Source: Candidatus Woesebacteria bacterium
Lineage (GTDB): Bacteria > Patescibacteriota > Microgenomatia > UBA1400 > MFAQ01
DNA: 64,000 nucleotides
Assembly (NCBI GenBank): GCA_035389185.1
Contig: DAOORK010000001.1
Location: 829,881-893,880 of the forward strand
Reading direction: 5' to 3'
Each line of letters starts with the position of its first letter. The first letter of the stretch is position 1. This document shows, piece by piece, positions 40,470 through 62,836 of the stretch. Both the position numbers and the translations under genes were made by a program. The notes under the pieces were generated by a model. That model was not told where the DNA came from, did no database searches, and saw nothing but the letters and a program-made list of their open reading frames with translations.

Positions 40470-40547
40470 ATTAGGTATATTTTATCAATAATAAGTTCGT
40501 TTTGATTGTGTCATTCACATAGGGGAGTTCTATGGTACGATTGAAAT

Positions 40548-41243: not shown

Positions 41244-41245
41244 AA

Positions 41246-41318
41246 GGGCCCGTAGCTCACCTGGTAGAGCGTTCGCATGGCATGCGAAAGGTAGTCGGTC
41301 CGAGTCCGATCGGGTCCA
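41246..41318 (+). tRNA. tRNA-Ala (anticodon GGC)
   Basis: Acceptor GGGCCCG/CGGGUCC with G3:U70, anticodon loop AUGGCAU, and an atypical T-loop UCCGAGU. It starts 2 nt after the stop of CDS 40548..41243. Confidence 0.65.
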
Positions 41319-41321
41319 CAA

Positions 41322-41678
41322 ATGGAAAAAAGTATTGAGAAACCAGAGGAGTTGAATAGACTTGAGGAATTACAAGAGGCAATTAAGAGTGCACCACAGA
41401 AAGTTCAGGCTGAATTTGACAAAAATTTAAATCCTTGGCTGTCTTGTCTGATTAGTAGTGTTGAGGTGATTGATATTTATTTAAACAGTTCGAAACTAAA
41501 GACTTTATTGCCGGAAGAAAAAATTGAGTCTGCAGCCGAAAAGTTGAACTGTCTGAAGAAGAAAATTTCATTATTGAAGGAGCAATATCCTAATAGGGAA
41601 ACGATATTACTAGAAGAATTGCAGAACGAATTACTGCGAGAATTAGATGTTCTTCGAGACGAAGAGACAGAAAAATAG
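41322..41678 (+). CDS. Hypothetical coiled-coil protein
   Basis: 118 aa, rich in E/K/L heptads, sitting between two tRNA genes. Confidence 0.5.
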   Translation: MEKSIEKPEELNRLEELQEAIKSAPQKVQAEFDKNLNPWLSCLISSVEVIDIYLNSSKLKTLLPEEKIESAAEKLNCLKKKISLLKEQYPNRETILLEELQNELLRELDVLRDEETEK

Positions 41679-41718
41679 ACGTTTTGTTTTCATCAAAATT
41701 GAGATAAAATTACTAGAA

Positions 41719-41791
41719 GGGCCCGTAGCTCACCTGGTAGAGCGCCGCATTCGCATTGCGGAGGTAAGGGGTCCGAGTCCCCTCAAGTCCA
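41719..41791 (+). tRNA. tRNA-Ala(CGC)-like second copy, degenerate or chimeric (possible pseudogene)
   Basis: The D and anticodon arms are identical to 40397..40469. The first 30 nt, including the upstream TAGAAG, are identical to the tRNA-Ala(GGC) context at 41241. The T-loop is UCCGAGU, and there are two C:A mismatches in the acceptor stem (5' GGGCCCG, 3' CAAGUCC). Confidence 0.5.
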
Positions 41792-41796
41792 CATTA

Positions 41797-49395: not shown

Positions 49396-49571
49396 CCTAA
49401 TTCCTGTCGTCTCTGTATTGGACTTATCACCCTATTTCTTTGTTGGCCAGCGATAATTCAGATTCTCCTGCGGAATCTGATTATCTCGATTCTCGACTTA
49501 AATTCCGCCTCAAAGGCGGACCAAGCAATTTAAGTCTGCGAAGCGTGGCACAAAGAACAAGGGTTCACGTC
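49396..49571 (+). ncRNA. Candidate structured RNA, copy B, upstream of ndk
   Basis: The ends and junctions match copy A. P2 is GATAATTCAGATTC/GAATCTGATTATC and P3 is CGACTTAAATT[CCGCC-TCAAA-GGCGG]ACCAAGCAATTTAAGTC, with compensatory changes that preserve pairing. Confidence 0.5.
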
Positions 49572-49652: not shown

Positions 49653-50126
49653 ATGATGCAAAAAACTGTTGTTCTGGTTAAACCAGACGGGTTACAAAGA
49701 GGTCTGGTTGGGGAGATTATCTCTCGATTTGAGCGAAAAGGTTTGAAACTTGCCGCCATTAAAATGGTGCAGATGTCCGATGAAATTATCGATAGCTGGT
49801 ATGCCCATCTTAAAGATAAAAGCTTTTTTGGAGAAATAAAGTCATATATTTCTTGGACTCCCATTGTCGCGATGGTTTGGGAAGGTTTAGATGCTGTAGA
49901 TGCTGTGCGGAAAATTGTGGGTATTACTAAAGCTAGAGAAGCCGAAGCTGGATCGATTAGAGGGGATCTGGGAATGAGTCAGCAGAACAACCTGATTCAT
50001 GCTTCTGATAGTCCGGAAGCTGCTGAGAAAGAAATGGGTCTAATCTTTAACAAAGATGAAATATTTATCTACCAAAGTGGTATGGACTGCCTAGTTTACG
50101 GTAAAAACGACCTAGAAATTAAGTAA
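49653..50126 (+). CDS. ndk: Nucleoside diphosphate kinase
   Basis: TVVLVKPDG..RGLVGEIISRFE..G...IHASDS with an active-site His. The RBS AAGGAG is present. Confidence 0.9.
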   Translation: MMQKTVVLVKPDGLQRGLVGEIISRFERKGLKLAAIKMVQMSDEIIDSWYAHLKDKSFFGEIKSYISWTPIVAMVWEGLDAVDAVRKIVGITKAREAEAGSIRGDLGMSQQNNLIHASDSPEAAEKEMGLIFNKDEIFIYQSGMDCLVYGKNDLEIK

Positions 50127-50191
50127 AATTGTTTATAGCCCTCCAGAAATGGGGGGCTTTTTGATGTTTTTCAGGGTAAAATAGGAGTGTT

Positions 50192-50241
50192 CGGGGTGTA
50201 GTGAATCGGTATCATGGTCGCCTAAGGCGACAGACATAGGC
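50192..50241 (+). pseudogene. tRNA-like fragment 1: 5' half of tRNA-Pro with a palindrome at the anticodon-arm position
   Basis: CGGGGTGTAGTGAATCGGTATCA is identical to the 5' half of the tRNA-Pro at 50320, then comes GGTCGCCTAAGGCGAC (a 6-bp stem with a 3-nt loop). There is no T-arm or 3' acceptor. Confidence 0.45.
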
Positions 50242-50253
50242 AAAAATAAATAT

Positions 50254-50303
50254 CGGGGTATAGCGCAGATGGTATCACGGTCGCCTAAGGCGATAGGCCT
50301 CAA
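50254..50303 (+). pseudogene. tRNA-like fragment 2: a different tRNA 5' half (CGGGGTATAGCGCAGATGGTA) fused to the same palindrome
   Basis: ...GGTATCACGGTCGCCTAAGGCGAT...; no complete cloverleaf. Confidence 0.4.
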
Positions 50304-50319
50304 GTTATAATATTTATAC

Positions 50320-50391
50320 CGGGGTGTAGTGAATCGGTATCACGCTTCGTTCGGGACGAAGAGACAGGCGGTCCAATTCCGCCCACCCCGA
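50320..50391 (+). tRNA. tRNA-Pro (anticodon CGG)
   Basis: Acceptor CGGGGUG/CACCCCG, D-arm GUGAAUCGGUAUCAC, anticodon arm CUUCG-UUCGGGA-CGAAG (identical to the E. coli tRNA-Pro CGG arm), and T-arm GGCGG-UCCAAUU-CCGCC, which is an atypical T-loop. Confidence 0.7.
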
Positions 50392-50393
50392 CA

Positions 50394-50645
50394 ATGTATA
50401 CGACTTATGTGTTACAAAGTCTAAAAAACGGAAGACTGTATATTGGATCAACAAATAATCTTTCCAGAAGACTGAGTGAACACAATTCAGGTCAATCAAC
50501 TTATACTAAGTCAACAAGACCTTATGTTTTGGTGTATTCAGAAGAATTTTTAACTCGAACTGAAGCGGTAAGAAGGGAACTTGCTTTAAAAACTGGTCAA
50601 GGAAGGCTTTGGTTAAAAAACAATATTAGTATCACGGTCGCCTGA
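50394..50645 (+). CDS. GIY-YIG domain endonuclease (small, homing-endonuclease-like)
   Basis: YVLQSLKNGRLYIGSTNNLSRRLSEHNSG carries the GIY...YIG...R...E..N motifs. It begins 2 nt after tRNA-Pro, and its stop codon lies inside the palindrome of tRNA-like fragment 3. Confidence 0.75.
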   Translation: MYTTYVLQSLKNGRLYIGSTNNLSRRLSEHNSGQSTYTKSTRPYVLVYSEEFLTRTEAVRRELALKTGQGRLWLKNNISITVA

Positions 50646-50681
50646 GGCGACAGACAGGCGGTCCAATTCCGCCCACCCCGA
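50629..50681 (+). pseudogene. tRNA-like fragment 3: the 3' two-thirds of tRNA-Pro with the palindrome in place of the anticodon arm
   Basis: GTATCACGGTCGCCTGAGGCGACAGACAGGCGGTCCAATTCCGCCCACCCCGA. The 3' 31 nt are identical to the tRNA-Pro at 50320, and it is followed by a T-tract. Confidence 0.45.
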
Positions 50682-50763
50682 CTTTTTGGTTAGCGGTTGT
50701 GGTATGAGAGCTTGGGTATGATAGAATCCTCATACAAGATCGTTGACAATCAAAGGAGGCAGA

Positions 50764-51279
50764 ATGGAATTTTCCTTAAAAGTTGTTGAACACGAAGCAG
50801 AAAAGTATTTCCAGACAGGAAATATCTTGGTTAATGTGTTGGATTGTCTGTATGAATTCCTTGGTGGTTCTTTAAAAATCATGCGTGGTGGCATGTTGAT
50901 TGATGAGGCTTCCATTCGGATGTATGGAACTCATGGAGAGATGCCTGTCTTCCATACCAAGTTGAGTTCGAAATGGATGAAGGATAAGTTTGGGTTAATT
51001 TCCTATGAGTATCTTCGTCTCGAAGCTGATTGCTTTGAGGTTGGTGACATTCTTTTGCTGACAGTGCTTGACGAAAAGAAAGGCTTTGACCTTGAACGCG
51101 CACTTGATTGTTGCCGAGAGCTGACCGACGAAGAAAAAAGAGAGATTTGGTTGTTTGGAAAAAGTATCGGCGATACAGACAAACAAATTATTGATTCAAT
51201 CAAAGATAGCAGACAGCCTCGTGATGGAACTACCTATGAAGAATCAGATGGTCTGAAAATATATCATCGTCAGTTGTAA
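50764..51279 (+). CDS. Hypothetical protein
   Basis: Start placed at the ATG at 50764, which follows AAAGGAGG. 171 aa. A terminator hairpin follows. Confidence 0.6.
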   Translation: MEFSLKVVEHEAEKYFQTGNILVNVLDCLYEFLGGSLKIMRGGMLIDEASIRMYGTHGEMPVFHTKLSSKWMKDKFGLISYEYLRLEADCFEVGDILLLTVLDEKKGFDLERALDCCRELTDEEKREIWLFGKSIGDTDKQIIDSIKDSRQPRDGTTYEESDGLKIYHRQL

Positions 51280-51292
51280 AAAAATCCCCGCT

Positions 51293-51502
51293 TTAGGCGG
51301 GGTTTTGTTTTTTAAGAAGATAATTGATACTATCTTCACGGTCAAGTATCCCTTGAACATAATTTAGACAACGATGACATGTTGATGCTGGATACCCGTG
51401 ATGGTCTTCTTTGATATGAAAAGCAAGATCCTCTTTAAATTTGAGGAGATCCGATCTGTATTCAGCGAGCAGATCGTTGATGGTTTCTGTTTTTTCTGTC
51501 AT
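51293..51502 (-). CDS. Small hypothetical protein
   Basis: 70 aa from the ATG at 51502, with AAGGA 7 nt upstream. It has HxxxxH and CxxC motifs (HHGYPASTCHRC). Confidence 0.45.
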   Translation of the reverse strand: MTEKTETINDLLAEYRSDLLKFKEDLAFHIKEDHHGYPASTCHRCLNYVQGILDREDSINYLLKKQNPA

Positions 51503-51529
51503 TTTATCGTCCTTGGATATCAAATTTGT

Positions 51530-51596
51530 GCTCGAGTGCTCTGGGCAGAGTCGAACTGCCGACCTGTCGCCTAAGGCGACTGCTCTATCAATTTAT
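51530..51596 (-). pseudogene. Truncated tRNA-Arg-like copy with the GTCGCCTAAGGCGAC palindrome replacing the anticodon arm
   Basis: It shares GATAGAGCAG and CAGGTCGGCAGTTCGACTCTGCCCA with the adjacent tRNA-Arg. The 5' acceptor and D-stem are missing. Confidence 0.45.
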
Positions 51597-51673
51597 TGGT
51601 GAGGTTGGGCAGAGTCGAACTGCCGACCTGCTCGTTAGGAGTGAGCTGCTCTATCCATCTGAGCTACAACCTC
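51597..51673 (-). tRNA. tRNA-Arg (anticodon CCU), CCA encoded
   Basis: Acceptor GAGGUUG/CAACCUC-A-CCA, D-arm GCUCAGAUGGAUAGAGC, anticodon loop CUCCUAA, T-arm GGCAG-UUCGACU-CUGCC. Confidence 0.75.
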
Positions 51674-51716
51674 AATCAGTATATTTTACATCGGAGCTTG
51701 TGATATTATTGCCCAA

Positions 51717-52391
51717 ATGAGGAAGGAGTACGATCTGATCAACGAGCTCGGGCCAAGGAATTGGCTGGATACTGTGGCCGGAGAGGCAGTTTTTTTGGGT
51801 TATCAGTTGAGGACGCCTGAGCTGTCGGCAAAAGGTACCGCTTTGGCAAAGCTGATTAGGGAGATCCGGTTTGATGATGATGCCTTTTTTGTTGTGCAGT
51901 GCACAGGGATTGCTTTGCAGGAGGAGATTGCCCAGGTGAAGAAAAAAGTAAAAGAAACAGTATTTATAGATGATATCTATACCGGAAAAGAGAAAAAAGA
52001 GGCCTTATTGGATTGGGAGTATGACTTGATAATGGTTGACGGAAGATATCAGATACAGATGATACTGCCGGTTTATTATGACAAAGCGATATTAAATGAC
52101 GAAAGGAAACAGAGATCAGAGAAATGGGTGAGATCGAAGTTGGGAGAGATATGTCTTGAGAACTGTCGAGTAGAAGAAGTTCTAACGCAGTACGAATCAC
52201 AGATCTTCACATATACTAAGTATTTCGACGAGAAGGAAAACATGCGGTACGAAACAGTCGATTTTAATCACGAGGGTAGTCCCGCTCGGGGATGGATGGA
52301 GTATTTTTTCTTCGACGATTGGAACCAAGCTTGTGAGGCTTGGTCGGGGATTAAAGAAGTTTATTTTAGATCGAAGGAGATCAGATTGTAG
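51717..52391 (+). CDS. Hypothetical protein (probably a leaderless mRNA)
   Basis: 224 aa. A TATTAT box lies 7 nt upstream of the ATG. The 3' end overlaps the convergent gene 52361..53680. Confidence 0.6.
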   Translation: MRKEYDLINELGPRNWLDTVAGEAVFLGYQLRTPELSAKGTALAKLIREIRFDDDAFFVVQCTGIALQEEIAQVKKKVKETVFIDDIYTGKEKKEALLDWEYDLIMVDGRYQIQMILPVYYDKAILNDERKQRSEKWVRSKLGEICLENCRVEEVLTQYESQIFTYTKYFDEKENMRYETVDFNHEGSPARGWMEYFFFDDWNQACEAWSGIKEVYFRSKEIRL

Positions 52392-53680
52392 GTGTCGACT
52401 TTTTGATTGATGTTGGTGAGGATGATGAGGCGATTACCATCCGGACTGCTGACCGCAAAACCTTCTTTGGGTTGAACGTAGGTGATGTTAGTCATGTTGA
52501 GACCGTCGTAGTCGGCAATATTGACACCGTCCGCGTTAGTGACGATGATCTGGGTAGAGTTACTATACCAAGAGAGGTTTCCGACGAGGTAACTTTCTGA
52601 CTGGGCCTTGAGCTGTTTGAGGGTAGTGATGTCGGCTGATGGAGTAGCTTCGGCGACGGTGATGAGAGTCTTTTGAAGGGTAGCGGAGCCGGAAGCGAAG
52701 TGTAGCTGGTAGTTGGTACCTTCTTTGGTATCAAAGAGATAGGTGACATCTTTCTTGAGATTGCGGGTTTCCGGAGTAGAGTTGATGTTGGGTAAGGTTT
52801 TGCCAATCTCGTTTTCAGGAAGTGTGGCATCGATAGTGGCCGTGTAAAAAACCTTTTCCTTGTCGGGAGAGAAGTAAACGTTTTTGGCTTTTTCAGTGAG
52901 GATATCAACCATATAGCTGGGATAAAGAGTGAGGATTGGCTTGTTTATTTTGGCGTACTGATCTTGCCAAGTATTAATAATTGAAGGCAGACGAAGAGTT
53001 ACATCGCTAATCGACTTGATATTGTTCATGTTTTTGGCGGAAAGAAGCATGGCCGAGACAATTTTCTCGGTATTTTTTGTTTTTTCAGTGAAAACAGCCA
53101 AGATTTGGGAGCTGTCTGGTGACCAAATGAGAAGGGCTTTGGTGAAGTCTTTGGTGGTGTTGTCGGTGATCTGGGTGGTTTGAGAAGAGTTTAGAAGACT
53201 ACCGGAGAAAGAGTGAACATAAATACCGTTGGCAGTGTCTACAGGGGAGTCTGTCAGGACATAGGCCATCTTGGAACCATCGGCGTTAATAGCGGCGTTG
53301 CCTGCTTGGTAGAAAGTGAGAGGATAAGTGGCAGTAATAATGGGGAAAAGACGAGCGTTGGCGTTGCTGACTAACTCAGACTTGACGGGGACGACCTTGG
53401 TCCATGGATGAAAGCCGTCTTTTTCGATCTTTATGGTGTAGTTTGAGGGATAAAGATATAGTTTGTCATCGGTAACGGTGGTTAGTTTGCCATCGATCAT
53501 GACTCGAGCTGATTGAGGATAAGAAGTGACATTGAGAAGTCCTGACCCTTGTAGAGATCCCTCTTTGATGTTTGGGCGGTAACCTTTGGCGTAGAGAATA
53601 CCGGCAGTGGTACCTATGGCAAGGAAAAGGACAATGAGAATGTTAATAATTATGCGTTTAGCTTTGGGGTGTTTGGTCAT
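52361..53680 (-). CDS. Membrane-anchored PEGA-domain / beta-propeller-like protein
   Basis: N-terminal TM helix, a PEGA-like segment (SYPQSARVMIDGKLTTVTDDKLYLYPSNYTIKIEKDGFHPW), then a long beta-rich region. The start is set to the ATG at 53680. Confidence 0.65.
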   Translation of the reverse strand: MTKHPKAKRIIINILIVLFLAIGTTAGILYAKGYRPNIKEGSLQGSGLLNVTSYPQSARVMIDGKLTTVTDDKLYLYPSNYTIKIEKDGFHPWTKVVPVKSELVSNANARLFPIITATYPLTFYQAGNAAINADGSKMAYVLTDSPVDTANGIYVHSFSGSLLNSSQTTQITDNTTKDFTKALLIWSPDSSQILAVFTEKTKNTEKIVSAMLLSAKNMNNIKSISDVTLRLPSIINTWQDQYAKINKPILTLYPSYMVDILTEKAKNVYFSPDKEKVFYTATIDATLPENEIGKTLPNINSTPETRNLKKDVTYLFDTKEGTNYQLHFASGSATLQKTLITVAEATPSADITTLKQLKAQSESYLVGNLSWYSNSTQIIVTNADGVNIADYDGLNMTNITYVQPKEGFAVSSPDGNRLIILTNINQKVDTYNLISFDLK

Positions 53681-53762
53681 CAATTATCTATTTTACCAGC
53701 AAAAAGTCAGCAGTTCCATTTAAGGACACTATATATATGGAACTCTGGTACAATTTGACCAA

Positions 53763-54770
53763 ATGTCATTTTCGTTTTCGAAAAAAATTGCAATTGATCT
53801 GGGAACAGCCAACAGTTTAGTTTATGTTGTGGGTGAGGGAGTAGTGTTGGAAGAGCCGACCGTGGTCGCGGTATCTTTGACGGATGGAAAGGTTCTGGCT
53901 GTCGGAAAAGATGCTCAAAGTATGTTGGGGAGGACGCCAGGAAACATAAAGGCGAGTAAACCGATGAGGGAAGGTGTGATAGCCGATTATGCGGTGACTG
54001 AAGCCATGTTGAAATACTTTTTGCGTAAAGTCGGGGCATATGGATTGGTGAAGCCGGAAGTAATGATATGTGTACCTGCAGGAGTAACTCAAGTAGAACG
54101 AAGAGCGGTATTAGGTGCGGCGATGGAAGCCGGAGCTCGAAATGCATATCTTATTGAAGAACCATTAGCAGCGGCGATTGGTGCAGGAATACCAATATCC
54201 GAACCATCTGGAAACATGATTTTAGATATGGGTGGCGGTGCTGCCGAGGCAGCAGTGATTTCATTAGGCGGAGTGGTTACCTTTAAGAGTGTGAGAGTGG
54301 CAGGTAATAAAATTGATGAAGCCATTATGAGATGGGCCAGAAGAAAACACAATTTAGTGATCGGCGACCAAACTGCAGAACAGATCAAAATAAAGATTGG
54401 TTCAGCAATGCCTGTGTCCAAGGAGGAAATAATGGAGGTAACAGGACGGGATAGTATTGCCGGTTTGCCACGACAGGTCACAATCTCATCAACAGACGTT
54501 TTTGAGGCCATGAGAGAGCCTTTGGGAAAAATAATTCAGATGCTGAAATCGGTAATGGAAGAAGTACCTCCAGAGCTGTCAAGCGATATTATTGACAAAG
54601 GGATCGTAATGAGTGGGGGAACGGCTATGCTTCGAGGATTTGACCGTTTGATTACTACTGAAACAGGCGTTCCGGCCTTTGTGGCAGAAGATCCGCAAAG
54701 GTGTGTAATAAAAGGTATAGGGATAGCAATTGAGAATATAGATGTTTATAGGGGTAGCCTACGACGTTAA
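53763..54770 (+). CDS. mreB: Rod shape-determining protein MreB
   Basis: IAIDLGTANSLVYV...EPTVVAV, plus the actin-fold phosphate 2 and adenosine motifs (DMGGGAAEAAVISLGG; VMSGGTAMLRGFDRL). A TGGTACAAT box lies 9 nt upstream of the ATG. Confidence 0.9.
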   Translation: MSFSFSKKIAIDLGTANSLVYVVGEGVVLEEPTVVAVSLTDGKVLAVGKDAQSMLGRTPGNIKASKPMREGVIADYAVTEAMLKYFLRKVGAYGLVKPEVMICVPAGVTQVERRAVLGAAMEAGARNAYLIEEPLAAAIGAGIPISEPSGNMILDMGGGAAEAAVISLGGVVTFKSVRVAGNKIDEAIMRWARRKHNLVIGDQTAEQIKIKIGSAMPVSKEEIMEVTGRDSIAGLPRQVTISSTDVFEAMREPLGKIIQMLKSVMEEVPPELSSDIIDKGIVMSGGTAMLRGFDRLITTETGVPAFVAEDPQRCVIKGIGIAIENIDVYRGSLRR

Positions 54771-56193
54771 TATCTAAATTACTTCTGCATCAATCCTTTT
54801 TATTTATCTTGTCAGATTTTGATTTAGAGTGCTAATTTTGTATTTAGGTTCAATAACTAGTTTTGGAATATTATTTGTATAGGGTAATCACGATTGATGA
54901 TACATGTATATAGTATAAAAATAGAGGAAGTCAAAAAAAAATAATTTTTTGGAAAATATTGATGGAGATATGAGACATTGTTTGTTGTTAGAAACAGATA
55001 TATAAAATAATGAATTTACTTTATTTTGTTTTCGACATAGGAAATGTCAGTTGTTTGGTCTTTTGCTATTTTTCACAAAGATATCGATACCCCCTAGATA
55101 TTATCTATTTATAAAAATATTTCTTTTGGATATACCCATAGGTAGGGGTATCTGTGCATTGAGATTTTTAAATAGTTCTCTATCGTGTACCCGGGGTGGG
55201 GTATGGTTTGAAATGAGAAATGTTCGTTTGTGATTGCTAGTTTTTAACAATGGTTATTTTGTCAGGGGGTATGGGGGTATACCATTTCGATGGTAGAGGT
55301 TAATGAAAGATATCGTTGATTTTTTAAAATAATCAATATATTAGCTTTCATATGTAATATATGATACAAAATAAGGTCTTTGATATTTGTATTTAAGGCT
55401 TGACAAGTGTTTTTAGAGCGCTATCTAGTTCTATTTGGGCCAGTAAATATTGGGTTTGCGTTCATAACGGTCTTTTGACTTTTAAACAATGTCGACGGCT
55501 GTTTGCTTTGATACTTTGACAATAAAAGGCTTTGTCTTTGAAATGTAATTTTGGCCAATAGAGAAGATCATCTTAATAGTTATGAAGATAAGGGATCAAG
55601 TCAGAAAGTGATTGACTTTATATATTTTTCCGGATTTGAATATATTGTGAAAAACGAGATTTTTATATATTTTTAGGTTGAACAAACTATATCAAGCGAT
55701 TTGGATATATAAGTCTAAATATGATTATTTTTGTCTAAAAAAACAAGAGTTTATATAAATATTTGAGAGGATTAGAATAAGTTAATATAAGACATAATTA
55801 TTTATATCATATATTTGATACATTCATTTATTTGAGCATAAAAATAGAGGTGAAAAAGTATACAATAATTTACGAAAGGAATCACCTATGACCGATTTGA
55901 ATAGAGCCAAATAACTATTAATATGATAAAAATTGACCGTATAACATATAAGATAAGAGAAGATACCTTATATATATTCAATTTTTTATGAATTCCGATA
56001 AAATTTTCAAGTTTGATGTTTTCACTGAGCATTTTTTTGACCGAAATTTACTCAATTTAACATCATGAAGGCATAGAAAGGGTTGATACAGAGGCCCAAA
56101 ATAAAAAAACTGCCTGTTTGGCAGTCTACTTTTCTAAGTGATAACGTTTTATGGATTTAGGCACGATTTTGAGGAAGCATTTTTGAATGAATC
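54771..56193. other. 1.4-kb AT-rich gene-free region with iteron-like GGGGTAT / ATACCCC repeats
   Basis: No ORF of 60 aa or more. The motif recurs at 55085 (ATACCCCC), 55132-55155 (ATACCCATAGGTAGGGGTAT, inverted pair), 55196 (GGGGTATGG) and 55268-55285 (GGGGGTATGGGGGTATACC). There is a terminator-like hairpin at ~56108-56135. Confidence 0.5.
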
Positions 56194-56235
56194 TTGTATG
56201 GTTTATTTTTACTGTGTGCCTGCTACAATACTATC

Positions 56236-57036
56236 ATGAGATCTGACGTTTTGGGCCTTCCGGTGGACGTTTTAAATAGACGGGATGTGAGTGAAAAAAT
56301 AAGTAAATGGATTGAGAATGACAATGATTTGAAGTTACTTATTACTGCGTATAGTGAATTTTTTGTAAAAGCTCAAAGTGATAAGGAGTTTTTTGAAGTC
56401 ATGAAGTCGGCTGATATGGTGACGCCTGATGGTGTGTCAGTTTTGGCGGCAGTGAGTTATCTTCGCCAAGCAAAAGGAAGAACGTTATTGGGCAGATTGG
56501 CTTGGGGATTGAAAACCGGCGGAGATATCTTGTCTGGGAAGGTGGGAGAAACAGTAACCGGGGTATGGTTATTTGAAGAACTTACAAAAATGGCGGCTGA
56601 AAGAGACTGGAAGGTATTTCTGCTTGGTGGATGGGGTGGAGTGAGCGAGAGAGTGGCTAAAAGGCTTCTAAAACGGTTTCCAGGACTAAAAGTGGCCTAT
56701 GACTCAGGCGAAGAGAGAGTTGGGACGGATGAGAAGAAAAACAGAGAGGTAATAGACAAGATAAATAAATTTCGTCCAGATATTTTGTTTGTGTCTTACA
56801 ACCCGATTAAACAAGAGAAATGGTTAGCTAAGCACCGCCACGAATTGAAAGTAAAAATAGGTATTGGAGTTGGTGGGACTTATAACGAATATATGGGGGA
56901 GTTCAAGAAGGCTCCACGATGGATGGAAAAGATGGGTTTGAAGTGGTTGTGGAGGGTATGGGTCGAACCAAAGAGGTTTGGTCGGATAATGAAGGCAGTG
57001 TTTGTTTTCCCTTGGTTGGTGTTTCGAAATTCATGA
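56236..57036 (+). CDS. WecB/TagA/CpsF-family glycosyltransferase
   Basis: MVTPDGVSVLAAV...FLLGGWGGVSERVAKRL...LFVSYNPIKQEKWLAKH...IGIGVGGTYNEYMGE matches Glyco_tran_WecB. The start is the ATG at 56236, 7 nt after a TACAAT box (leaderless-like). Confidence 0.75.
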   Translation: MRSDVLGLPVDVLNRRDVSEKISKWIENDNDLKLLITAYSEFFVKAQSDKEFFEVMKSADMVTPDGVSVLAAVSYLRQAKGRTLLGRLAWGLKTGGDILSGKVGETVTGVWLFEELTKMAAERDWKVFLLGGWGGVSERVAKRLLKRFPGLKVAYDSGEERVGTDEKKNREVIDKINKFRPDILFVSYNPIKQEKWLAKHRHELKVKIGIGVGGTYNEYMGEFKKAPRWMEKMGLKWLWRVWVEPKRFGRIMKAVFVFPWLVFRNS

Positions 57037-57045
57037 GGGTAATTG

Positions 57046-57074
57046 ACTTGCAAAACTTATAGTGATAAAATCCG
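57046..57074 (+). promoter_or_regulatory. Sigma70-like promoter TTGACT-17-TAAAAT; its 15-nt block TTGACTTGCAAAACT is shared with 63553
   Basis: TTGACTTGCAAAACTTATAGTGATAAAAT lies upstream of CDS 57153. Confidence 0.4.
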
Positions 57075-57152
57075 CGTTACTTTGACCTTTCTTCTGGGAA
57101 AATCCCAGGTTGGGGTCATAGGACTTTGACAAACCCTATGTAGGAGGTAAAG

Positions 57153-58553
57153 TTGAAAGGAACGTTGAGAACAGTAAGTGCTGTCTTGATGATCGTGGCA
57201 GTGTTGTTTGTATCAATTAACGCCACGATGGCTCAAGCAAAACCGGTCGGATGTCACGAGACGCCTAGTGCTGATTGTGACGGCTGGTCTATTGATCTGA
57301 CGGGTCCCGGAGACGGCTGGACTGTACAGTCTGTCGTTGGTTCCTTGTCTGGAAGCTGGGCACCGGGTGAGACATATCATTCCTATTCGTTGACAGTTAC
57401 TTGGGAGAAAGTTTTCCCTAGTTACACCGAGACGATTAATCGTGGTCACCAAGGGAATGTTTGGTTTGACTGTCCGGAAGGCTACACCGTTGGGTCAAAC
57501 ACGACAAAATGTGTTAGGACGGTTCCCGAAAGGACCGAGACTCAGGTCTCGAACTTCTCTGGATCAATCGACAAACCAAGTGATTGTGTGGTGACACCGG
57601 TGTGCGGTAACAGTGTTGTTGAAGCTCCTGAAGCTTGCGACGATGGTAATACTGTCGATGGTGATGGTTGTAGCGCCACTTGTACCGTGGAAGCCAGAAA
57701 GGTCTACGTATGCAAATACGTAGGCACTCCACACTTTGACGAACGCTTGCAGGACGGGCAAAACCCGATCGAAGTGTCCGTCAATGCTATCCCGGGCGAC
57801 GCAACGGTAGGTTCATATTTTAACGATGCTCATGGACAGAGTTTTGTGCTTGGGTTCGTCCCAATGGTGCCAGAGCCAACTCGAGCTGACTGTCCTTCTC
57901 CCGATGAACCTGATCTTTGTGATGTGACTACACGTGCTTATGGCACTTGGTCAGACTGGGTTGTAAACCCGGCAAATACTGATCAGGAGATGCGGACTCA
58001 GCCGTATACAGACTATGATGCGACTGAAACAGAGCATGTTTGTGGTGCCGGTATTAGTACTGAGTATCGTGAGCGGACAAAATGTGTCTACCAGACTCCG
58101 GTGTATGGAGATTGGTCAGAGTGGGTCTTGGACGAGACGACTGGAATTGAATCCAGAAGCCAGTTGATGACTATCTTTGACTCGATCGACATGACTACAG
58201 TTTGTTCTACAGACACAAACACCGAAACTCGCGAAGTCGACAAACTGCCATACTGTTATGAAGGGAAAACAGAATACTACTACCCCGGAACTCAGCCCGC
58301 AGAAGCCACCGAAGGTGAATGTCCTGTGATCGAAAACGTCACGATCTGTTACAAGGGCACTACCATGACGGTTCCTGAAAATACTCTGGATAAATATCCT
58401 GGGTATGATAAGGGCGCCTGTCCGGTGATCGAAAAAACTCCCGAACCGCCCGCCCAGAATACTGGAGCAGGTGGCTTCCCCTTGAGGGAACTGGGCTATG
58501 CCCTGGCGGCAGTTGCTTTGATTATTTTTGGGTTATCGTTCTTGAAGCGGTAA
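57153..58553 (+). CDS. Secreted Cys-rich repeat protein with a C-terminal TM anchor (TTG start)
   Basis: Signal peptide. It contains CGNSVVEAPEACDDGNTVDGDGCSATC (a Myxococcus-type cysteine-rich repeat). The C-terminus is ...TPEPPAQNTGAGGFPLRELGYALAAVALIIFGLSFLKR, a PEP-like motif followed by a TM helix and a basic tail. Confidence 0.65.
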   Translation: MKGTLRTVSAVLMIVAVLFVSINATMAQAKPVGCHETPSADCDGWSIDLTGPGDGWTVQSVVGSLSGSWAPGETYHSYSLTVTWEKVFPSYTETINRGHQGNVWFDCPEGYTVGSNTTKCVRTVPERTETQVSNFSGSIDKPSDCVVTPVCGNSVVEAPEACDDGNTVDGDGCSATCTVEARKVYVCKYVGTPHFDERLQDGQNPIEVSVNAIPGDATVGSYFNDAHGQSFVLGFVPMVPEPTRADCPSPDEPDLCDVTTRAYGTWSDWVVNPANTDQEMRTQPYTDYDATETEHVCGAGISTEYRERTKCVYQTPVYGDWSEWVLDETTGIESRSQLMTIFDSIDMTTVCSTDTNTETREVDKLPYCYEGKTEYYYPGTQPAEATEGECPVIENVTICYKGTTMTVPENTLDKYPGYDKGACPVIEKTPEPPAQNTGAGGFPLRELGYALAAVALIIFGLSFLKR

Positions 58554-58620
58554 CTTACATTTGAAACTGGGTTGGGGTAAAACCCAACCCTTTTTTTATT
58601 TTTATTTAGGAGGTTGAAGC

Positions 58621-59547
58621 GTGAAAAAGACGTTAGGGGTCGTGTTTGTTGTTTTGGGTTTGGCGATTTTGTTTTATCTATTATTTTCATTGAGTTCTCA
58701 GTACGGAGGAGAGATAGCAGTAGTCCAGACATACAAGACGCTCATGTCTATTTCCTCAAACACAGAGGGAGTTCGCGATTTACCAGTTGTGACTACACCA
58801 GTGCAAACTGTAATACCAACGGTCGAACCAACCCCGGAAAGAGTGATGGTTGTCACCAATGGATTGAACTTTGCCAACACCATCGATTTGTCTTCGGGTG
58901 ATCCGGTGGCTTTGATATTGGAATTGCCAAATGGAAATCTACTCAAAACCAACTGGGCAGAAACTAAAAAGTACGAGTCAGATGATCCTGAAGGAGTGTT
59001 TTCTCCTCTAGCGGGTACGATCTATTCGTATGAAAGTGATGTGGCTACAACTTGGGCTCATTCGGGAGTTATCAGCGGGGATATATTGCTGAACATCCCC
59101 GACAAGACCTTTTTTGCAACTGATCTTGATTTGTTTGTGAGAAAAGACGAAAACAATCGAGTGGTAACACTGGCGGATGCCGAGGCTCAAGCAAATACTC
59201 TAGTTGGCAGTACGGCATATCTTTGCCAGATGCCGAGTGGTGAAGTAAAAAATCTAGCAGACTTTGAGGGTGACGAGTGCCTGGGACAGAAACTGGAACT
59301 TGAGATAGTAGCCTTTGCCATTGTGCCTCATGAGATGATCTTGGAGTACGATGAGGCGAATATGTATATCAATCAGTGGATGAAAGAAAAGTTTCCTGGT
59401 ACCGGTTTTGAACAGCTTACCAAAGAAAACGGCTGGATTTTACGTTTTTGTGTGGGTAAGTTTGCCGATCAAACCTCTGATGGTACTCCTTCGTATCTAT
59501 ATAACAGGGGAGTGATTGGGTTTCGCGTTAAGGATAGGAGTAGCTAA
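58621..59547 (+). CDS. Membrane-anchored hypothetical protein (GTG start)
   Basis: The RBS AGGAGG precedes GTG. N-terminal signal anchor; 308 aa; no recognisable catalytic motif. Confidence 0.6.
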   Translation: MKKTLGVVFVVLGLAILFYLLFSLSSQYGGEIAVVQTYKTLMSISSNTEGVRDLPVVTTPVQTVIPTVEPTPERVMVVTNGLNFANTIDLSSGDPVALILELPNGNLLKTNWAETKKYESDDPEGVFSPLAGTIYSYESDVATTWAHSGVISGDILLNIPDKTFFATDLDLFVRKDENNRVVTLADAEAQANTLVGSTAYLCQMPSGEVKNLADFEGDECLGQKLELEIVAFAIVPHEMILEYDEANMYINQWMKEKFPGTGFEQLTKENGWILRFCVGKFADQTSDGTPSYLYNRGVIGFRVKDRSS

Positions 59548-59625
59548 TAACTACTCCTTTTTTTTATGTCAAAATTGATCTTTCTGATACAATACAGGCA
59601 AAGAACTTTAATATTAGGAGGATGA

Positions 59626-60072
59626 ATGGTAAATCGACCGTTTCAAATGGAAGACGAACTAGCAAGATTGATCTCCGGTTTGAAACCGGAGACAGAGATC
59701 ATGTCATTTGCCAGCGAAGACAAGTGGTTTCAGCAGATACTGGGAATGGCGGCGACTCAAGGTTTGCTCTCCGAGGTGGAAAAGATAACCTTTGAAGTTC
59801 AGACTCACTATGAGTTCGACAGCCTCAAAAATTTCTCCCGGGGTGGCTTTGTAGCAGTATTTCTACCACGGTTTTATATTATCCTCATTGAAGATGGGAA
59901 ACGAAATGATTTTACGGTACGCAATCCACGTTACTACAATGATTTGGTAGAAATTACCGAGAAGCCGATCGTAGAAACCGATATCCCCGACGTTGAGGAA
60001 GTGGGTGTTTGTACTCTTGATTTTTTTTGCAATACGCTTGAAAAGGGCAAGATCTGGAGACTAAGTAAATAG
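59626..60072 (+). CDS. Hypothetical protein, paralog of 60148..60606
   Basis: 148 aa. SRLISGLKP and GGFVAVFLPRFY align with SRLILGLLWP and GGWKAVFVPYIQ in the next gene. Leader TACAAT-N11-ACTTTAATATTAGGAGG. Confidence 0.6.
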   Translation: MVNRPFQMEDELARLISGLKPETEIMSFASEDKWFQQILGMAATQGLLSEVEKITFEVQTHYEFDSLKNFSRGGFVAVFLPRFYIILIEDGKRNDFTVRNPRYYNDLVEITEKPIVETDIPDVEEVGVCTLDFFCNTLEKGKIWRLSK

Positions 60073-60147
60073 TCTGTTTAGACCTCGAGGAATCGGGGTC
60101 TTTTTTGGTATACAATACTGGTTTAAGAACCTTAAAAAGGAGGAACG

Positions 60148-60606
60148 ATGAGTGAGTTAAATATGGAGATTCGTCTTTCACGACTGATTCTAGGCTTGTT
60201 GTGGCCATGTACAGTAGATAAGAAAGTTTTCAAAAATGATCAAGAGTATTCTCTACTTGCCGCAGAAGCCAAGGAAGAGAATAATGAGCCGAAGTGCGGT
60301 GCGGCCTATTTTTACCTCCGAATGGGATATTGTCTGAAAGGTTTTGAGGCTAAAAACGGTGGCTGGAAAGCGGTGTTTGTGCCATATATTCAAACCTGCA
60401 GACTGTATGACGGTTGTAAAACGGTTAACTTGGATAGTCATATCTCAGAGGACGCGGTGTCAGCACTAATACCTCTTCTTGGTATGGAAACTGAGACGTG
60501 TATGGACATTCCCAGAGTTGAACAGCTACCACTGTCACACATAGACTCCCAAGGTTATGTCATTGAGGAAGAAGAAAAATACTGGAGAATAGCTGACACA
60601 AGATAA
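60148..60606 (+). CDS. Hypothetical protein, paralog of 59626..60072
   Basis: 152 aa. Leader TACAAT-N12-ACCTTAAAAAGGAGG. A matching CCTCGAGGAATCGGGGTC(T)n terminator follows each of the two paralogs. Confidence 0.6.
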   Translation: MSELNMEIRLSRLILGLLWPCTVDKKVFKNDQEYSLLAAEAKEENNEPKCGAAYFYLRMGYCLKGFEAKNGGWKAVFVPYIQTCRLYDGCKTVNLDSHISEDAVSALIPLLGMETETCMDIPRVEQLPLSHIDSQGYVIEEEEKYWRIADTR

Positions 60607-60654
60607 ATTGTGACCCTGAGGAATCGGGGTCTTTTTTTGGAGAAAATAGGGGAC

Positions 60655-60903
60655 TTAGGAGTTATTGGGGCTGGGGTTCATGCCAAGCATCCAAAGAACC
60701 TGTTCTTTTTTGTAGCGGCGGTCTCCTCGGGAATTGATGCGGATAGCCGGGAGTTTGCCGCGTTTGCCCCAGCGTTTGAGGGTAAGAGTGGAGACACGGA
60801 GGATTTCGGCGACTTCGGAGACAGTCAGAAGGTCGGGAAGATCGTTGAGATTTAATTCTCTCTTGGTTGGTTTAACGATTGGGTTTTGGTCTTGATTGTC
60901 CAT
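60655..60903 (-). CDS. Excisionase-family / MerR-like HTH DNA-binding protein (HTH_17-like)
   Basis: LLTVSEVAEILRVSTLTLKRWGKRGKLPAIRINSRGDRRYKKEQV matches the excisionase/Xis-type helix-turn-helix pattern. Confidence 0.65.
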   Translation of the reverse strand: MDNQDQNPIVKPTKRELNLNDLPDLLTVSEVAEILRVSTLTLKRWGKRGKLPAIRINSRGDRRYKKEQVLWMLGMNPSPNNS

Positions 60904-61444
60904 GTCTGATACACAAGTTAACAGATAGTTTTAGTAACGTCAAGGGGAAGTTTTGCACATCCCATTGACATTTATATCTTTGTGTGGTATATTATAAGTC
61001 TTCCCAATGGGAATGCACCTTGATCGTAATCCAAACAGTTCCCCAAATTAACCTGCGCCGGGGAGAAAGGGAATCGATGTTCACCTGACTTTAGGGATGG
61101 GGTGACGCCCCGTACACTAGTCAACTGAAAAAAATAAGTGAAGAAGATCCCTGTTTTTGGCCAACCGGAGGGCACAGATCGCCCTAAGGCCAAAAAAAAT
61201 AAAGCAGAAACCGCTTTATGGCTGGGTAAGGTATATTCCTGCCAGGCCACACACTCTAAAATAAAGGAGTTCTAAGTGCGAAGATTTCTTCTGCTTTTCC
61301 TTCGGCGCTCATTGCGCCCAGTTTAACCTTAAGTACAGCGCATACACAGAGATTACGAAAAAACAAATTGTTGCATCAGGCCCCCGAAAGGGGGCTTTCG
61401 TTTGGCAAAAAACCCACCCTTTTGGGGTGGGTTTGACGTTTGAT

Positions 61445-62263
61445 TTACATCTTTGCTGAGGGTGTAATGTCCATGACGTTTTGATAGGCTTTGTTGACGG
61501 CCTCGAAATCAAACTTTTCTTTACTGGTGGGAACATTGAGGGCTTCAGAGACTTCCTTTTTTGCAGTGTTGAAGTGCGTGAGCTTGTTGAGGGGATTTTG
61601 ACGAACAAAGTGAAGGAAGTTTCCGATAATACGATTGCCCATATCAACGTTCTCTCGAATATTTTCGTTGATGGCAAGAGCCTGTTCCGTGGCTTTCTCG
61701 ACCAACTCAATTGCTTGACGGCAGGTTTTGAGACGTTTGGTTTTCTCCCAGGGAGAGATGGTCAAGCTGAGCGGGGAGATGAACTCCAGACGTTTTTTTG
61801 CCTCGACCATTTCACGACGATATCTGTAGGGTACTTTCTCATCGATGAGCTTGATTCCATTTTTGATGAGAGAACGGAGCTCTTCTTCGGTTTTCCAGAT
61901 GACGTAGTTGGTGACGTAAGGGGAAATATCCTTCTCGGTGAAGTCCAATTTCGAATCGATCTCGATGGCGGAAGCATAAATATCCTTGGTGAGGCTCAGC
62001 CATGACTGGAAGTTGAGAAGGTCTTCGAGTGGCTTGGTGGCACAGTAGATGGCCACAAGAAGAACTTTCCCAGCTTCTTGCTCGTCATAGCCGGCATATG
62101 GCCTGGCGCTGATTTGGGTAGGCCCTTCGGATTCAAGCTTGACAACATGATCTTGGAAACGATCGTTTCTGAGAATATCATAGACTTTTTCCTCGAGCTC
62201 TCGAGGCAAAACAGTCTGCCAAATATTGCAGAAGAGTTTAACAGCGGGTTTGAAATCTGACAT
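61445..62263 (-). CDS. Hypothetical protein
   Basis: 272 aa. Upstream is AGTACGTTAAAAGGAG, a leader-motif variant. Downstream are two tandem terminator hairpins (CCCACCC..GGGTGGG plus T-tract; GCCCCC-TTTC-GGGGGC). Confidence 0.6.
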   Translation of the reverse strand: MSDFKPAVKLFCNIWQTVLPRELEEKVYDILRNDRFQDHVVKLESEGPTQISARPYAGYDEQEAGKVLLVAIYCATKPLEDLLNFQSWLSLTKDIYASAIEIDSKLDFTEKDISPYVTNYVIWKTEEELRSLIKNGIKLIDEKVPYRYRREMVEAKKRLEFISPLSLTISPWEKTKRLKTCRQAIELVEKATEQALAINENIRENVDMGNRIIGNFLHFVRQNPLNKLTHFNTAKKEVSEALNVPTSKEKFDFEAVNKAYQNVMDITPSAKM

Positions 62264-62458
62264 TTATTACTCCTTTTAACGTACTGGGTATGGTTTCCTG
62301 CCTGGTGGGCAGGTTGGACGCCTTTTCCGGCGATTGGGGGTATTGTATCCTATAACGAAAGATGTGTCAAGAAACTTGTCAACAAAAAACCCGCTCAAGC
62401 GAGCGGGTTCTTTGGTTGCGGATTCAATCCGCCTAAGGCGGATTTCGTTAAAGATAGA

Positions 62459-62836
62459 TTACTTTAACTCAACTTTGGCACCGGCCTCTTCAAGCTTAGC
62501 TTTGGCGGCTTCGGCGTCTTCTTTTTTGGCACCTTCAAGAACAGTTGCGGGAGCTTTTTCGACCAAGTTTTTGGCTTCAACCAAACCGAGGTCGGTTTTG
62601 ATCTCACGAACGGCTTTGATAACGGCGATTTTGTTAGCACCGGCTTCGGCGATAACAACGTCAAATTCGGTCTTTTCCTCTGCAGGAGCAGCGGCAGCAG
62701 CTACGGCGGCGCCAGCTACGGCGACGGGAGCAGCGGTAACACCGAATTTTTCTTCTAACGCTTTGACGAGTTCAGCAACTTCCAAAACGGAGAGTTCACT
62801 GATCTGGTCGACGAGTTTTTGAACTTTGTCGGACAT
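62459..62836 (-). CDS. rplL: 50S ribosomal protein L7/L12
   Basis: [33 protein letters not shown], an Ala-rich hinge, and a C-terminal [25 protein letters not shown]. Confidence 0.95.

Follow-up and report, generated by a model that had tools for sequence, protein, structure and literature searches.

In fungal mitochondria, mobile endonuclease ORFs bring a replacement host-gene end with them and leave the displaced end behind as a pseudogene, and short GC-rich palindromes (GC clusters and double-hairpin elements) gather around such ORFs. The mobility of mitochondrial GC clusters has been described (PMC4478555). SegB, in the T4 tRNA gene cluster, is a free-standing GIY-YIG homing endonuclease gene of T4-like phages (PMC2330249), and insertion by integrases into tRNA genes leaves partial tRNA direct repeats, which are the att sites (PMC9897764). 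REP/REPIN elements have been described with RAYT transposases (PMC3733652, PMC3116915), and prokaryotic Slx1-like proteins as putative repair proteins with mainly vertical inheritance (PMC1564403).

The locus studied here lies in a 64-kb stretch of bacterial DNA (the window, which is all of its source genome that was analysed), for which a preliminary description had reported a palindrome occurring at least five times, four of them in place of the anticodon arm of tRNA-derived DNA. Both observations were confirmed. CGCCTRAGGCG has five matches, at 50219, 50282, 50639, 51568 and 62430, compared with none in 100 dinucleotide-preserving shuffles, and the tRNA context of four copies is borne out by repeats D3, D4 and D5 and by alignments, in which partial tRNA copies, here called orphans, have the 15-nt hairpin at the site of the 17-nt anticodon arm. 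The 15-mer GTCGCCTAAGGCGAC is present exactly at 50217-50231 and 51566-51580, and the copies at 50280-50294 (final T, giving a G-T pair) and 50637-50651 (loop TGA) each have one mismatch to it. Our preferred reading, to which we give a probability of about 60%, is that small selfish GIY-YIG cassettes form a family residing in tRNA loci, with the palindrome as its conserved hairpin, and that they spread in a homing-like manner and repeatedly overwrite resident tRNA genes. The features are as follows.

50192..50236, plus strand, first 5′ orphan (repeats D5 and D1; alignment with tRNA-Pro)
50254..50299, plus strand, second 5′ orphan (sequence; alignment with the working type 2 tRNA-Pro(CGG) of relative L157)
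50320..50392, plus strand, working tRNA-Pro(CGG), type 1 (ARAGORN; Rfam tRNA, 57.8 bits)
50394..50645, plus strand, GIY-YIG nuclease gene, 83 aa, UPF0213/Slx1-like minimal type (Pfam PF01541, E = 2.4e-16)
50629..50682, plus strand, 3′ orphan of tRNA-Pro (repeats D1 and D3; alignments)
51542..51589, minus strand, 3′ orphan of tRNA-Arg (repeat D4; alignment; 3′ cover 1-24 of 33)
51597..51673, minus strand, working tRNA-Arg(CCT) (ARAGORN; Rfam, 61.8 bits)
62426..62444, no strand assigned, variant hairpin AATCCGCC-TAA-GGCGGATT of TCCGCC type (DNA fold, -8.1 kcal/mol)

A cassette consists of a minimal Slx1/UPF0213-type GIY-YIG gene of about 80 aa, a working tRNA gene and border orphans, where a 14-15-nt hairpin of the form GTCGCC-N2-3-GGCGAC stands in exactly for the 17-nt anticodon arm. 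One cassette is found in the window, in the order 5′ orphan, 5′ orphan, tRNA-Pro(CGG), ORF, 3′ orphan, and in addition an ORF-less 3′ orphan beside tRNA-Arg(CCT). The first 5′ orphan reproduces positions 1-25 of type 1 tRNA-Pro at 50192-50216 (1-23 of 25 covered in the flank alignment), continues with the hairpin GTCGCC-TAA-GGCGAC (50217-50231) and AGACA of the variable region (50232-50236), and then breaks off. In the second, the 5′ part of a type 2 tRNA-Pro allele (D arm GCGCAG...) is fused to TCACG and followed by the hairpin GTCGCC-TAA-GGCGAT (50280-50294) and by AGGCC, the type 2 variable region. Both precede the working tRNA-Pro(CGG), whose anticodon arm (50345-50361) has the normal 17 nt. 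The 3′ orphan of tRNA-Pro begins with the 3′ strand of the D arm, GTATCACG (50629-50636), and the hairpin GTCGCC-TGA-GGCGAC (50637-50651), and its remainder at 50652-50682 (variable region, T arm and acceptor 3′ strand) is identical to the working gene at 31/31 positions. The orphan of tRNA-Arg, 10 nt downstream of its working gene, reads in the tRNA sense GATAGAGCA, the hairpin GTCGCC-TTA-GGCGAC (51566-51580), the variable region, the T arm and two acceptor nucleotides; over 51542-51566 it matches the 3′ part of tRNA-Arg without a difference (repeat D4). ARAGORN and Rfam called the two intact tRNAs alone and none of the fragments in the window, even at E values up to 10. Intron-containing or otherwise unusual functional tRNAs (group I intron, suppressor) were considered and rejected, the fragments being truncated and the hairpin loop only 3-5 nt, and an Rfam search for intron families gave no match in the window.

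The GIY-YIG ORF starts 2 nt past the 3′ end of tRNA-Pro, in the same orientation and with no promoter or terminator in between, an arrangement from which the gene is evidently co-transcribed with the tRNA. Its last codons run through the D-arm remnant of the 3′ orphan, and the hairpin loop supplies its stop codon, TGA. Residues Y5, Y16, G18, R26, H30 and E62 are invariant in 23 sequences and include the catalytic Tyr, Tyr, Arg, His and Glu of GIY-YIG enzymes. The PDB entries 1zg2 (E = 3.6e-16) and 1ywl (5.7e-13) and SLX1 (~1e-6) match better than I-TevI (3e-3), and Foldseek ranks 1zg2 and Slx1 first for the AlphaFold2 model (pLDDT 90), in the same order as the sequence search. The protein is closer to UPF0213/Slx1 than to I-TevI or UvrC, has no accessory domain, and shows no DNA-binding module in Pfam or in the model, so that only the catalytic core is present. 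From sequence and model, nuclease activity is plausible for this member of the structure-specific Slx1 lineage.

The same arrangement recurs in many genomes. Among 32 loci fetched by similarity to the GIY-YIG ORF, 29 carry the ORF within about 80 nt of a tRNA called by ARAGORN, and a CGCC/GGCG hairpin lies no more than 200 nt away in at least 22, at most loci inside orphans. The substitution of the hairpin for the anticodon arm is found at at least 12 tRNA types, with exact boundaries between tRNA positions 26/27 and 43/44; hairpins upstream of a working tRNA have the full 5′ part (1-26) at their left, and those downstream have the full 3′ part (44-76) at their right. In the opposite direction, a metagenome scan for the hairpin returned at least 120 stretches, and among the matches listed with room for scoring on both sides, a GIY-YIG ORF lay within 450 nt in 21 of 32 tRNA-like contexts, compared with 1 of 56 other contexts; a hairpin scan of a viral collection gave 1 match only. 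Hairpin variants track clades of the ORF: a double hairpin with 5-nt loops goes with the Gln clade, and the TCCGCC form with the L018/L021/L024 clade. The palindrome had previously been interpreted as REP-like or as the recognition site or repair scar of the GIY-YIG element, and of this the link to the element is strongly supported by the counts above. A scar generated locally is unlikely, as the stem does not change in sequence from one tRNA to another. Local segmental duplication, named there as a possible refutation, is contradicted, since one hairpin shared by unrelated tRNAs, at at least 12 types elsewhere, cannot have come from it.

Comparison of relatives reveals several signs of mobility. 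Loci L016 and L063 are nearly identical except for an additional 55-nt 5′ orphan in L063, and the module of L063 matches that of L075 at 416 of 428 positions (97%), while their flanks are only ~73-75% identical. Orphans or ORF-plus-orphan units form tandem arrays at four loci (L079, L069, L136 and L020), and truncated ORF copies are found at L002, L019 and L031-L033. Alleles alternate as well: the window and L155 have a working type 1 tRNA-Pro(CGG) with a type 2 5′ orphan, and L157 has a working type 2 tRNA-Pro with a type 1 5′ orphan. In the window and L157 the right-hand orphan matches the tRNA allele of the cassette and not the displaced allele, which counts against the cassette reading as far as the geometry of insertion is concerned. 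Patchy presence, decay, and an element better conserved than its flanks are thus all observed, as for free-standing homing endonuclease genes; no element-free allele was found among the recovered loci.

The fifth copy in the window (62426-62444) shares with the others the inner CGCC-TAA-GGCG alone, its outer stem being AATC/GATT, and a search for tRNA likeness in it gave no match. It lies where it had been placed before, with the stop of rplL (minus strand) on one side and the bidirectional terminator (62388-62410) on the other. Hairpins of the TCCGCC type occur with GIY-YIG/tRNA cassettes in other genomes. It is plausible that this variant, although outside a tRNA context, belongs with the other four.

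Some hairpins have no GIY-YIG gene nearby, and these must be counted against the cassette reading. The same hairpin forms P3 of at least 12 distinct RNase P RNAs, follows the 3′ end of 16S in the spacer of L012/L104, and occurs in AAGGTTCT-hairpin-AGGTTCTTA repeats bounded by a 7-nt direct repeat. Together with the copy downstream of rplL and the 11 of 32 tRNA-like contexts that lack an ORF among the matches listed, they would be expected if an autonomous REP-like mini-palindrome (NNCGCC-loop-GGCGNN) spread alone, or by another factor, and settled where tolerated, with an indirect link to the GIY-YIG gene because both accumulate in tRNA loci. Orphans also carry additional GC hairpins in their D and T loops (L004, L027, L076, L122 and L155); these fit the same idea, hint at a separate hairpin-inserting process, and likewise weigh against the cassette reading. 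We regard this explanation as rather unlikely, although such a process may contribute: the strong bias of the ORF towards tRNA-like contexts and the co-variation of hairpin variants with ORF clades speak against an indirect link, the hairpin sits at one fixed place as an exact anticodon-arm swap rather than at scattered insertion points, neither a GTAG or CGTC tag nor an adjoining RAYT-like gene was seen, and ORF-less orphans are easily accounted for by loss of the ORF between direct repeats.

Alternatively, the hairpin could act as RNA, either capping mRNA ends cut from a tRNA precursor or serving as a protein handle in a guide-like orphan transcript whose flanks, derived from tRNA, would pair with the tRNA gene or its transcript. 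The absence of a promoter of its own for the ORF, which starts 1-3 nt past the tRNA 3′ end or 10-17 nt past the hairpin, points in this direction, as do the loop TGA, which serves as stop codon at several loci and is favoured on the sense strand (TGA 28 versus TCA 11 among the matches listed), the working helix P3 of RNase P RNA, and complete hairpin-tRNAs, which still score above threshold as Rfam tRNA (52 and 43.5 bits). On the other hand, most orphans are truncated and unable to fold as tRNA-like substrates, mismatches in imperfect hairpin copies are not biased toward G-U (TC 4, TG 2, others 4), and GIY-YIG enzymes are, as far as is known, DNA nucleases, which leaves this role improbable. 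That the fragments are att-site repeats of tRNA-targeting integrase elements or a local segmental duplication, with an incidental palindrome, is very hard to sustain: a 3′ partial tRNA repeat beside an intact tRNA is a classical integration signature, which both 3′ orphans (50629-50682 and 51542-51589) fit, but no integrase gene flanks or separates the repeats, the hairpin interrupts them, the inserted DNA is a 250-nt ORF of 83 aa or nothing, 5′ orphans occur too, and one 15-nt hairpin is shared here by the orphans of tRNA-Pro and tRNA-Arg, which are unrelated, and elsewhere by those of at least 12 tRNA types.

The selfish-cassette reading builds on the anatomy of the locus, its recurrence, the two-way link between hairpin and gene, the polymorphism of orphans, the higher conservation of module than of flanks, and the alternation of alleles. 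Under it, the cassette would spread by homing-like recombination, for which the conserved 5′ and 3′ parts of the tRNA could serve as portable homology arms. As the cassette brings its own tRNA copy, the resident gene could be split and orphaned with function kept. Repeated invasions would pile up orphans upstream, recombination between direct repeats would trim the array, and the hairpin would be retained by selection on the element. The hairpin would most likely be a structure- or sequence-specific site of the nuclease, and may also be a heterology block that keeps the orphan non-decoding and limits its recombination with the working tRNA. For classical homing an immunity problem arises, because the working tRNA of the cassette looks like its presumed target. 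Moreover, ORF clades follow tRNA type only weakly (identity 0.568 within and 0.523 between types; in 14 of 42 cases the nearest neighbour shares the type), thus frequent changes of tRNA type by ORF and hairpin must be assumed. Simple homology-driven homing does not account for these, which must also be held against this reading, as must the lack of a DNA-binding domain in the protein.

We found no published description of a hairpin/tRNA/GIY-YIG cassette, so it apparently has not been described so far. A broader claim can be made only tentatively: the cassettes may represent a new class of mobile element across several phyla, in which a minimal Slx1-like nuclease gene with its hairpin overwrites stem-loops of structured RNAs at their base (chiefly the tRNA anticodon arm, maybe P3 of RNase P RNA), serially replaces the resident tRNA by the carried allele, and uses the hairpin or orphan as a recognition handle for a nuclease without a DNA-binding domain. 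If the cassette reading is correct, tRNA loci of uncultured bacteria (labelled in the database as Patescibacteria, Chloroflexota and others) are also shaped by a selfish element that is very small as well as very widespread, and stand-alone bacterial Slx1-like GIY-YIG proteins gain a concrete biological context. Stacked orphans would record successive tRNA gene replacements, so that turnover of tRNA alleles could be read from sequence. Errors of tRNA annotation would be explained too, as ARAGORN calls complete hairpin-tRNAs tRNA-Ser(tga), tRNA-Leu(aag) or suppressor tRNA. A hairpin shared with RNase P RNA raises the question of a common binding factor.

Compared with the systems described above, the cassette resembles fungal mitochondrial ORFs in that an endonuclease travels with a host-gene copy and the resident is orphaned with function kept, and differs in its bacterial tRNA target, its single conserved hairpin exactly at the anticodon arm, and its nuclease family. 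As with SegB, a GIY-YIG gene lies between or beside tRNA genes outside any intron; SegB is thought to promote joint inheritance with its neighbouring tRNA region by break-induced gene conversion, to which the higher conservation of module than flanks is a parallel. DNA-binding modules are found in the larger Seg proteins, whereas the present ORF is an 83-aa catalytic core without the long-recognition-site module of I-TevI and Seg proteins; its Slx1/UPF0213 lineage is separate from the HEase/UvrC lineage (PMC1564403). Hairpin-substituted tRNA orphans have not been described for SegB, and the hosts here are cellular genomes, with 1 viral contig matched. Integrase insertions likewise show an intact tRNA followed by a partial 3′ copy, but in the present case an integrase is lacking, the cargo measures 250 nt, there are 5′ orphans as well, and the hairpin replaces the anticodon arm within the repeat. 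Like REP/REPIN elements, the hairpins are dispersed short GC-rich non-coding palindromes tied to one dedicated nuclease gene, whereas the enzyme is of GIY-YIG and not HUH/Y1 type and placement is position-specific in tRNA-derived DNA; GTCGCC-N3-GGCGAC, without a GTAG/CGTC tag and with neighbouring genes free of the HUH (RAYT) domain, lacks the marks of a REP/RAYT system. Slx1 and bacterial UPF0213 (PDB 1zg2, 1ywl, 6seh and 4xlg) are the best matches of the protein in sequence and fold. Slx1 cleaves branched DNA near junctions, and by analogy such cutting would fit an enzyme acting at the hairpin base or on a tRNA/orphan heteroduplex. Unlike the mainly vertically inherited Slx1-like proteins described before, the present clade behaves as a mobile, patchy and often decayed gene.

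The core CGCCTRAGGCG has five matches in the window (50219, 50282, 50639, 51568 and 62430) against none in 100 shuffles, and the repeated palindrome pointed out in the preliminary description is real. A longer 15-mer, GTCGCC-TRA-GGCGAC, is common to four of the five copies with at most one mismatch each; the fifth copy, at 62426–62444 near rplL, shares with the others the inner CGCC-TAA-GGCG alone and has an outer stem of its own, AATC/GATT. Folded as single-stranded DNA, the hairpin reaches −6.4 kcal/mol, compared with −5.1 (Pro) and −2.3 (Arg) for real anticodon arms. The same description had this hairpin replacing anticodon arms, and this is indeed the case in partial tRNA copies (hereafter orphans): a 15-nt hairpin takes the place of the 17-nt arm in orphan 1 and in the tRNA-Pro 3′ orphan, and recurs in a tRNA-Arg 3′ orphan. 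The features are as follows, in forward-strand order.

5′ of orphan 1: ndk terminator
50192–50236, forward strand: 5′ orphan 1, identical to positions 1–23 of the working tRNA-Pro
50254–50299, forward strand: 5′ orphan 2
50320–50392, forward strand: working tRNA-Pro(CGG), found by ARAGORN and Rfam
50394–50645, forward strand: GIY-YIG ORF of 83 aa, beginning two bases past tRNA-Pro
50629–50682, forward strand: tRNA-Pro 3′ orphan, overlapping the end of the ORF and identical to the last 31 bases of the working tRNA
51542–51589, reverse strand: tRNA-Arg 3′ orphan, 10 nt after the working gene, with the same hairpin and no ORF
51597–51673, reverse strand: working tRNA-Arg(CCT), found by ARAGORN and Rfam

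ARAGORN and Rfam call the two intact tRNAs only, and Rfam at permissive thresholds over 50100–51750 returned no tRNA match for the fragments. The TGA in the hairpin loop is the stop codon of the ORF, and no promoter-like or terminator-like site was seen between tRNA-Pro and the ORF. Neighbouring ORFs (171, 69, 224, 231 and 118 aa) match no Pfam or NCBIfam family, thus no integrase, transposase or RAYT is found there. The Pro (forward) and Arg (reverse) 3′ orphans face each other as a 39-nt inverted repeat of 77% identity, and the segment between them (50683–51541) contains a bidirectional terminator along with two ORFs without family (171 and 69 aa). L002, a relative, lacks all of this segment, and its truncated GIY-YIG ORF abuts tRNA-Arg. 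Elsewhere in the window, three tRNA-Ala genes (CGC reverse, GGC forward, CGC forward) lie within 1.4 kb at 40396–41792, separated by two ORFs without family match (40548–41243, 231 aa; 41322–41678, 118 aa), a group that may represent a further case of ORFs residing among tRNA genes and that lacks CGCC hairpin orphans.

The ORF product matches the GIY-YIG domain, with the catalytic Tyr, Tyr, Arg, His and Glu kept, and consists of the bare catalytic core. Among solved structures, the bacterial UPF0213 proteins 1zg2 and 1ywl come closest to it, followed by eukaryotic Slx1, and I-TevI is far more distant; a predicted structural model (pLDDT 90) gave the same fold ranking as the sequence. A 2006 survey regarded prokaryotic Slx1-like proteins as putative repair enzymes passed on mostly by vertical descent, and recorded a single fusion with a tRNA methyltransferase (PMC1564403).

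The pattern is wider than could be seen from the window. A protein-first scan of species-representative genomes for relatives of the ORF gave 32 loci, whose record titles name Patescibacteria, Chloroflexota/Dehalococcoidia, Elusimicrobia, Omnitrophota and others (MAG labels, some perhaps wrong). A co-oriented tRNA gene lies no more than about 80 nt from the ORF in 29/32; the ORF frequently overlaps the first 15–20 nt of the tRNA or begins 1–3 nt past its end, and a CGCC/GGCG hairpin lies no more than 200 nt away in at least 22, usually in the form GGTCGCC-N2-3-GGCGAC-AGG with tRNA-like sequence on its flanks. The tRNAs concerned include Ile, Gly, Val, Ala, Pro, Gln, Lys, Asp, Asn, His, Thr and Phe. 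In a hairpin-first survey, the 18-mer GTCGCCTNAGGCGACAGG matched at least 120 stretches of a metagenome collection, and one contig only in a viral collection. Among the metagenome matches listed, with identical contexts removed and 400 nt or more to either side, a GIY-YIG ORF was present within 450 nt of 21/32 hairpins with tRNA-like flanks, against 1/56 in any other context. These counts bear out the suspected tie of the hairpin to the GIY-YIG element, and we hold the association of hairpin, GIY-YIG gene and tRNA with high confidence.

An alternative that we keep alive is an autonomous hairpin, or one that acts at the RNA level. The copy at rplL is of the TCCGCC type, which also occurs in cassettes (L004, L014, L018, L021, L024 and L027; the prefix L denotes related loci in other genomes or metagenomes, fetched through the ORF protein or the hairpin), and it lacks tRNA-like surroundings: Rfam at permissive thresholds found no tRNA match over 62340–62480, so this copy is not attributable to a tRNA remnant. 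The GTCGCC hairpin forms the P3 helix in no fewer than 12 distinct RNase P RNAs, four of which are confirmed by Rfam (RNaseP_bact_a), follows the 16S 3′ end in L012/L104, and is part of a repeat, AAGGTTCT-hairpin-AGGTTCTTA. Additional GC hairpins gather in the D and T loops of orphans. As a test of selection on RNA, G-U and C-A mismatches were compared in imperfect hairpins; cases were few and no bias appeared.

Several further contexts were noted. Two further hairpins of the subtype seen at rplL, TCCGCC-loop-GGCGGA, are found at 15061–15075 and at 49504–49520, the latter in the intergenic region between a UPF0102 gene and ndk, within a longer inverted repeat GACTTAAAT...ATTTAAGTC. P3 is exactly GTCGCC-N3-GGCGAC followed by AGGAAAGTCC in L050, L058, L067, L071, L073, L109, L111, L116 and L144. 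In L044, L062, L078, L108 and L130 the hairpin belongs to a conserved repeat, AACAAGGTTCT-hairpin-AGGTTCTTA, with a 7-nt direct repeat on its flanks and no tRNA or GIY-YIG gene nearby; one 864-kb contig bears two copies. A 20-nt perfect palindrome, CCTGCCTGCCGGCAGGCAGG, occurs in unrelated metagenomes (L002 at 3290–3320, L076, and L041/L043/L060/L066/L113), where it is inserted into tRNA orphans (T arm or body) or forms clusters with the GTCGCC hairpin. Lastly, the frame GAGATTGCCAC-[hairpin]-TCGCAATGAC defines another hairpin family associated with GIY-YIG genes: at 18560–18605 of the window it lies between two giant ORFs without a GIY-YIG ORF, and in L155 (5706–6070) and L002 (3375–3420) it encloses GTCGCC and CCCGCC hairpins, the framed hairpins of relatives sitting directly downstream of another small GIY-YIG gene, distinct from the one described above.

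Returning to the module of hairpin orphans, working tRNA and ORF, the flanks of every hairpin were aligned to the nearest working tRNA. Hairpins upstream of the tRNA have its entire 5′ part (1–26) on the left and 5–15 nt only on the right; those downstream have the entire 3′ part (44–76) on the right and 6–12 nt only on the left. Thus, the boundaries of the swap fall exactly at 26/27 and 43/44. Full forms, with hairpins on both sides, have the order 5′ orphan, tRNA, ORF, 3′ orphan (the window, L063, L075, L076, L088, L091, L110, L129, L139 and L147) or 5′ orphan, ORF, tRNA, 3′ orphan (L005, L006 and L024). One-sided, ORF-less and tandem forms would derive from these by direct-repeat recombination; tandem 5′ orphans occur in L079 and L057, tandem 3′ orphans in L069, an array of ORF plus 3′ orphan in L136, and an ORF piece upstream of a 5′ orphan in L020. 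Complete hairpin pseudo-tRNAs also exist (L036 2316–2386, L054 1064–1133 and L012 3059–3132), called by ARAGORN as tRNA-Stop(tta), tRNA-Ser(tga) or tRNA-Leu(aag); two of them score above the Rfam gathering cutoff for tRNA (43.5 and 52.2 bits), and these pseudo-tRNAs are likely a source of annotation errors.

The hairpin is part of a gene-plus-tRNA module that is patchy, decaying and exchanged between diverged genomes, leaving orphaned tRNA halves. Measured from the start of the 5′ orphan to the end of the 3′ orphan, the modules of L063 and L075 are identical at 416 of 428 positions, and their flanks at about 73–75% only; L016 is nearly identical to L063, which has an extra 55-nt 5′ orphan. ORF copies are commonly truncated in the loci surveyed. 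Between the window and its closest relatives, two tRNA-Pro(CGG) alleles exchange roles: type 1 (D arm GTGA/TCAC, variable region AGACA) is in use in the window and L155, with a type 2 5′ orphan kept next to the gene, and in L157 type 2 is in use and a type 1 5′ orphan is kept. Three 5′ orphans are stacked in L155, and we read stacked orphans as a record of successive tRNA replacements.

In our model, the module would spread by recombination, with the conserved 5′ and 3′ parts of the tRNA as homology arms, and since it supplies a working tRNA, the resident one could be destroyed. Gene conversion between neighbours would then homogenise orphan flanks up to the heterology block, giving the hairpin swap its exact look. 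The hairpin stem is invariant, loops are variable, and stem variants track ORF clades, which we take to reflect selection on the element; the hairpin would most simply be the site of the nuclease. Our confidence in a homing-like mechanism is moderate. Among other models, a simple split of the resident tRNA at the anticodon arm is partly contradicted, as the right-hand orphan matches the cassette allele; target-site duplication is rejected because orphans and internal tRNA are different alleles in L005 and L006. Pure same-tRNA homing, which predicts a strict link of ORF clade and tRNA type, is rejected, as this link is weak (p = 0.0006, yet nearest neighbour of the same type in 14/42 only).

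No description of the hairpin-tRNA-GIY-YIG element, hairpin sequence included, was found in literature outside subscription journals. Mitochondrial endonuclease ORFs that carry a replacement gene end are a parallel to the cassette, as are integrase att repeats in tRNA genes, and REP/RAYT systems parallel the pair of hairpin and GIY-YIG gene; each differs in one or more defining features. SegB, the free-standing GIY-YIG homing endonuclease of the T4 tRNA cluster, comes closest as a precedent (PMC2330249), and from it the cassette likewise departs in one defining feature or more. We rate the cassette as akin to free-standing homing-endonuclease cassettes, as a variant of them.
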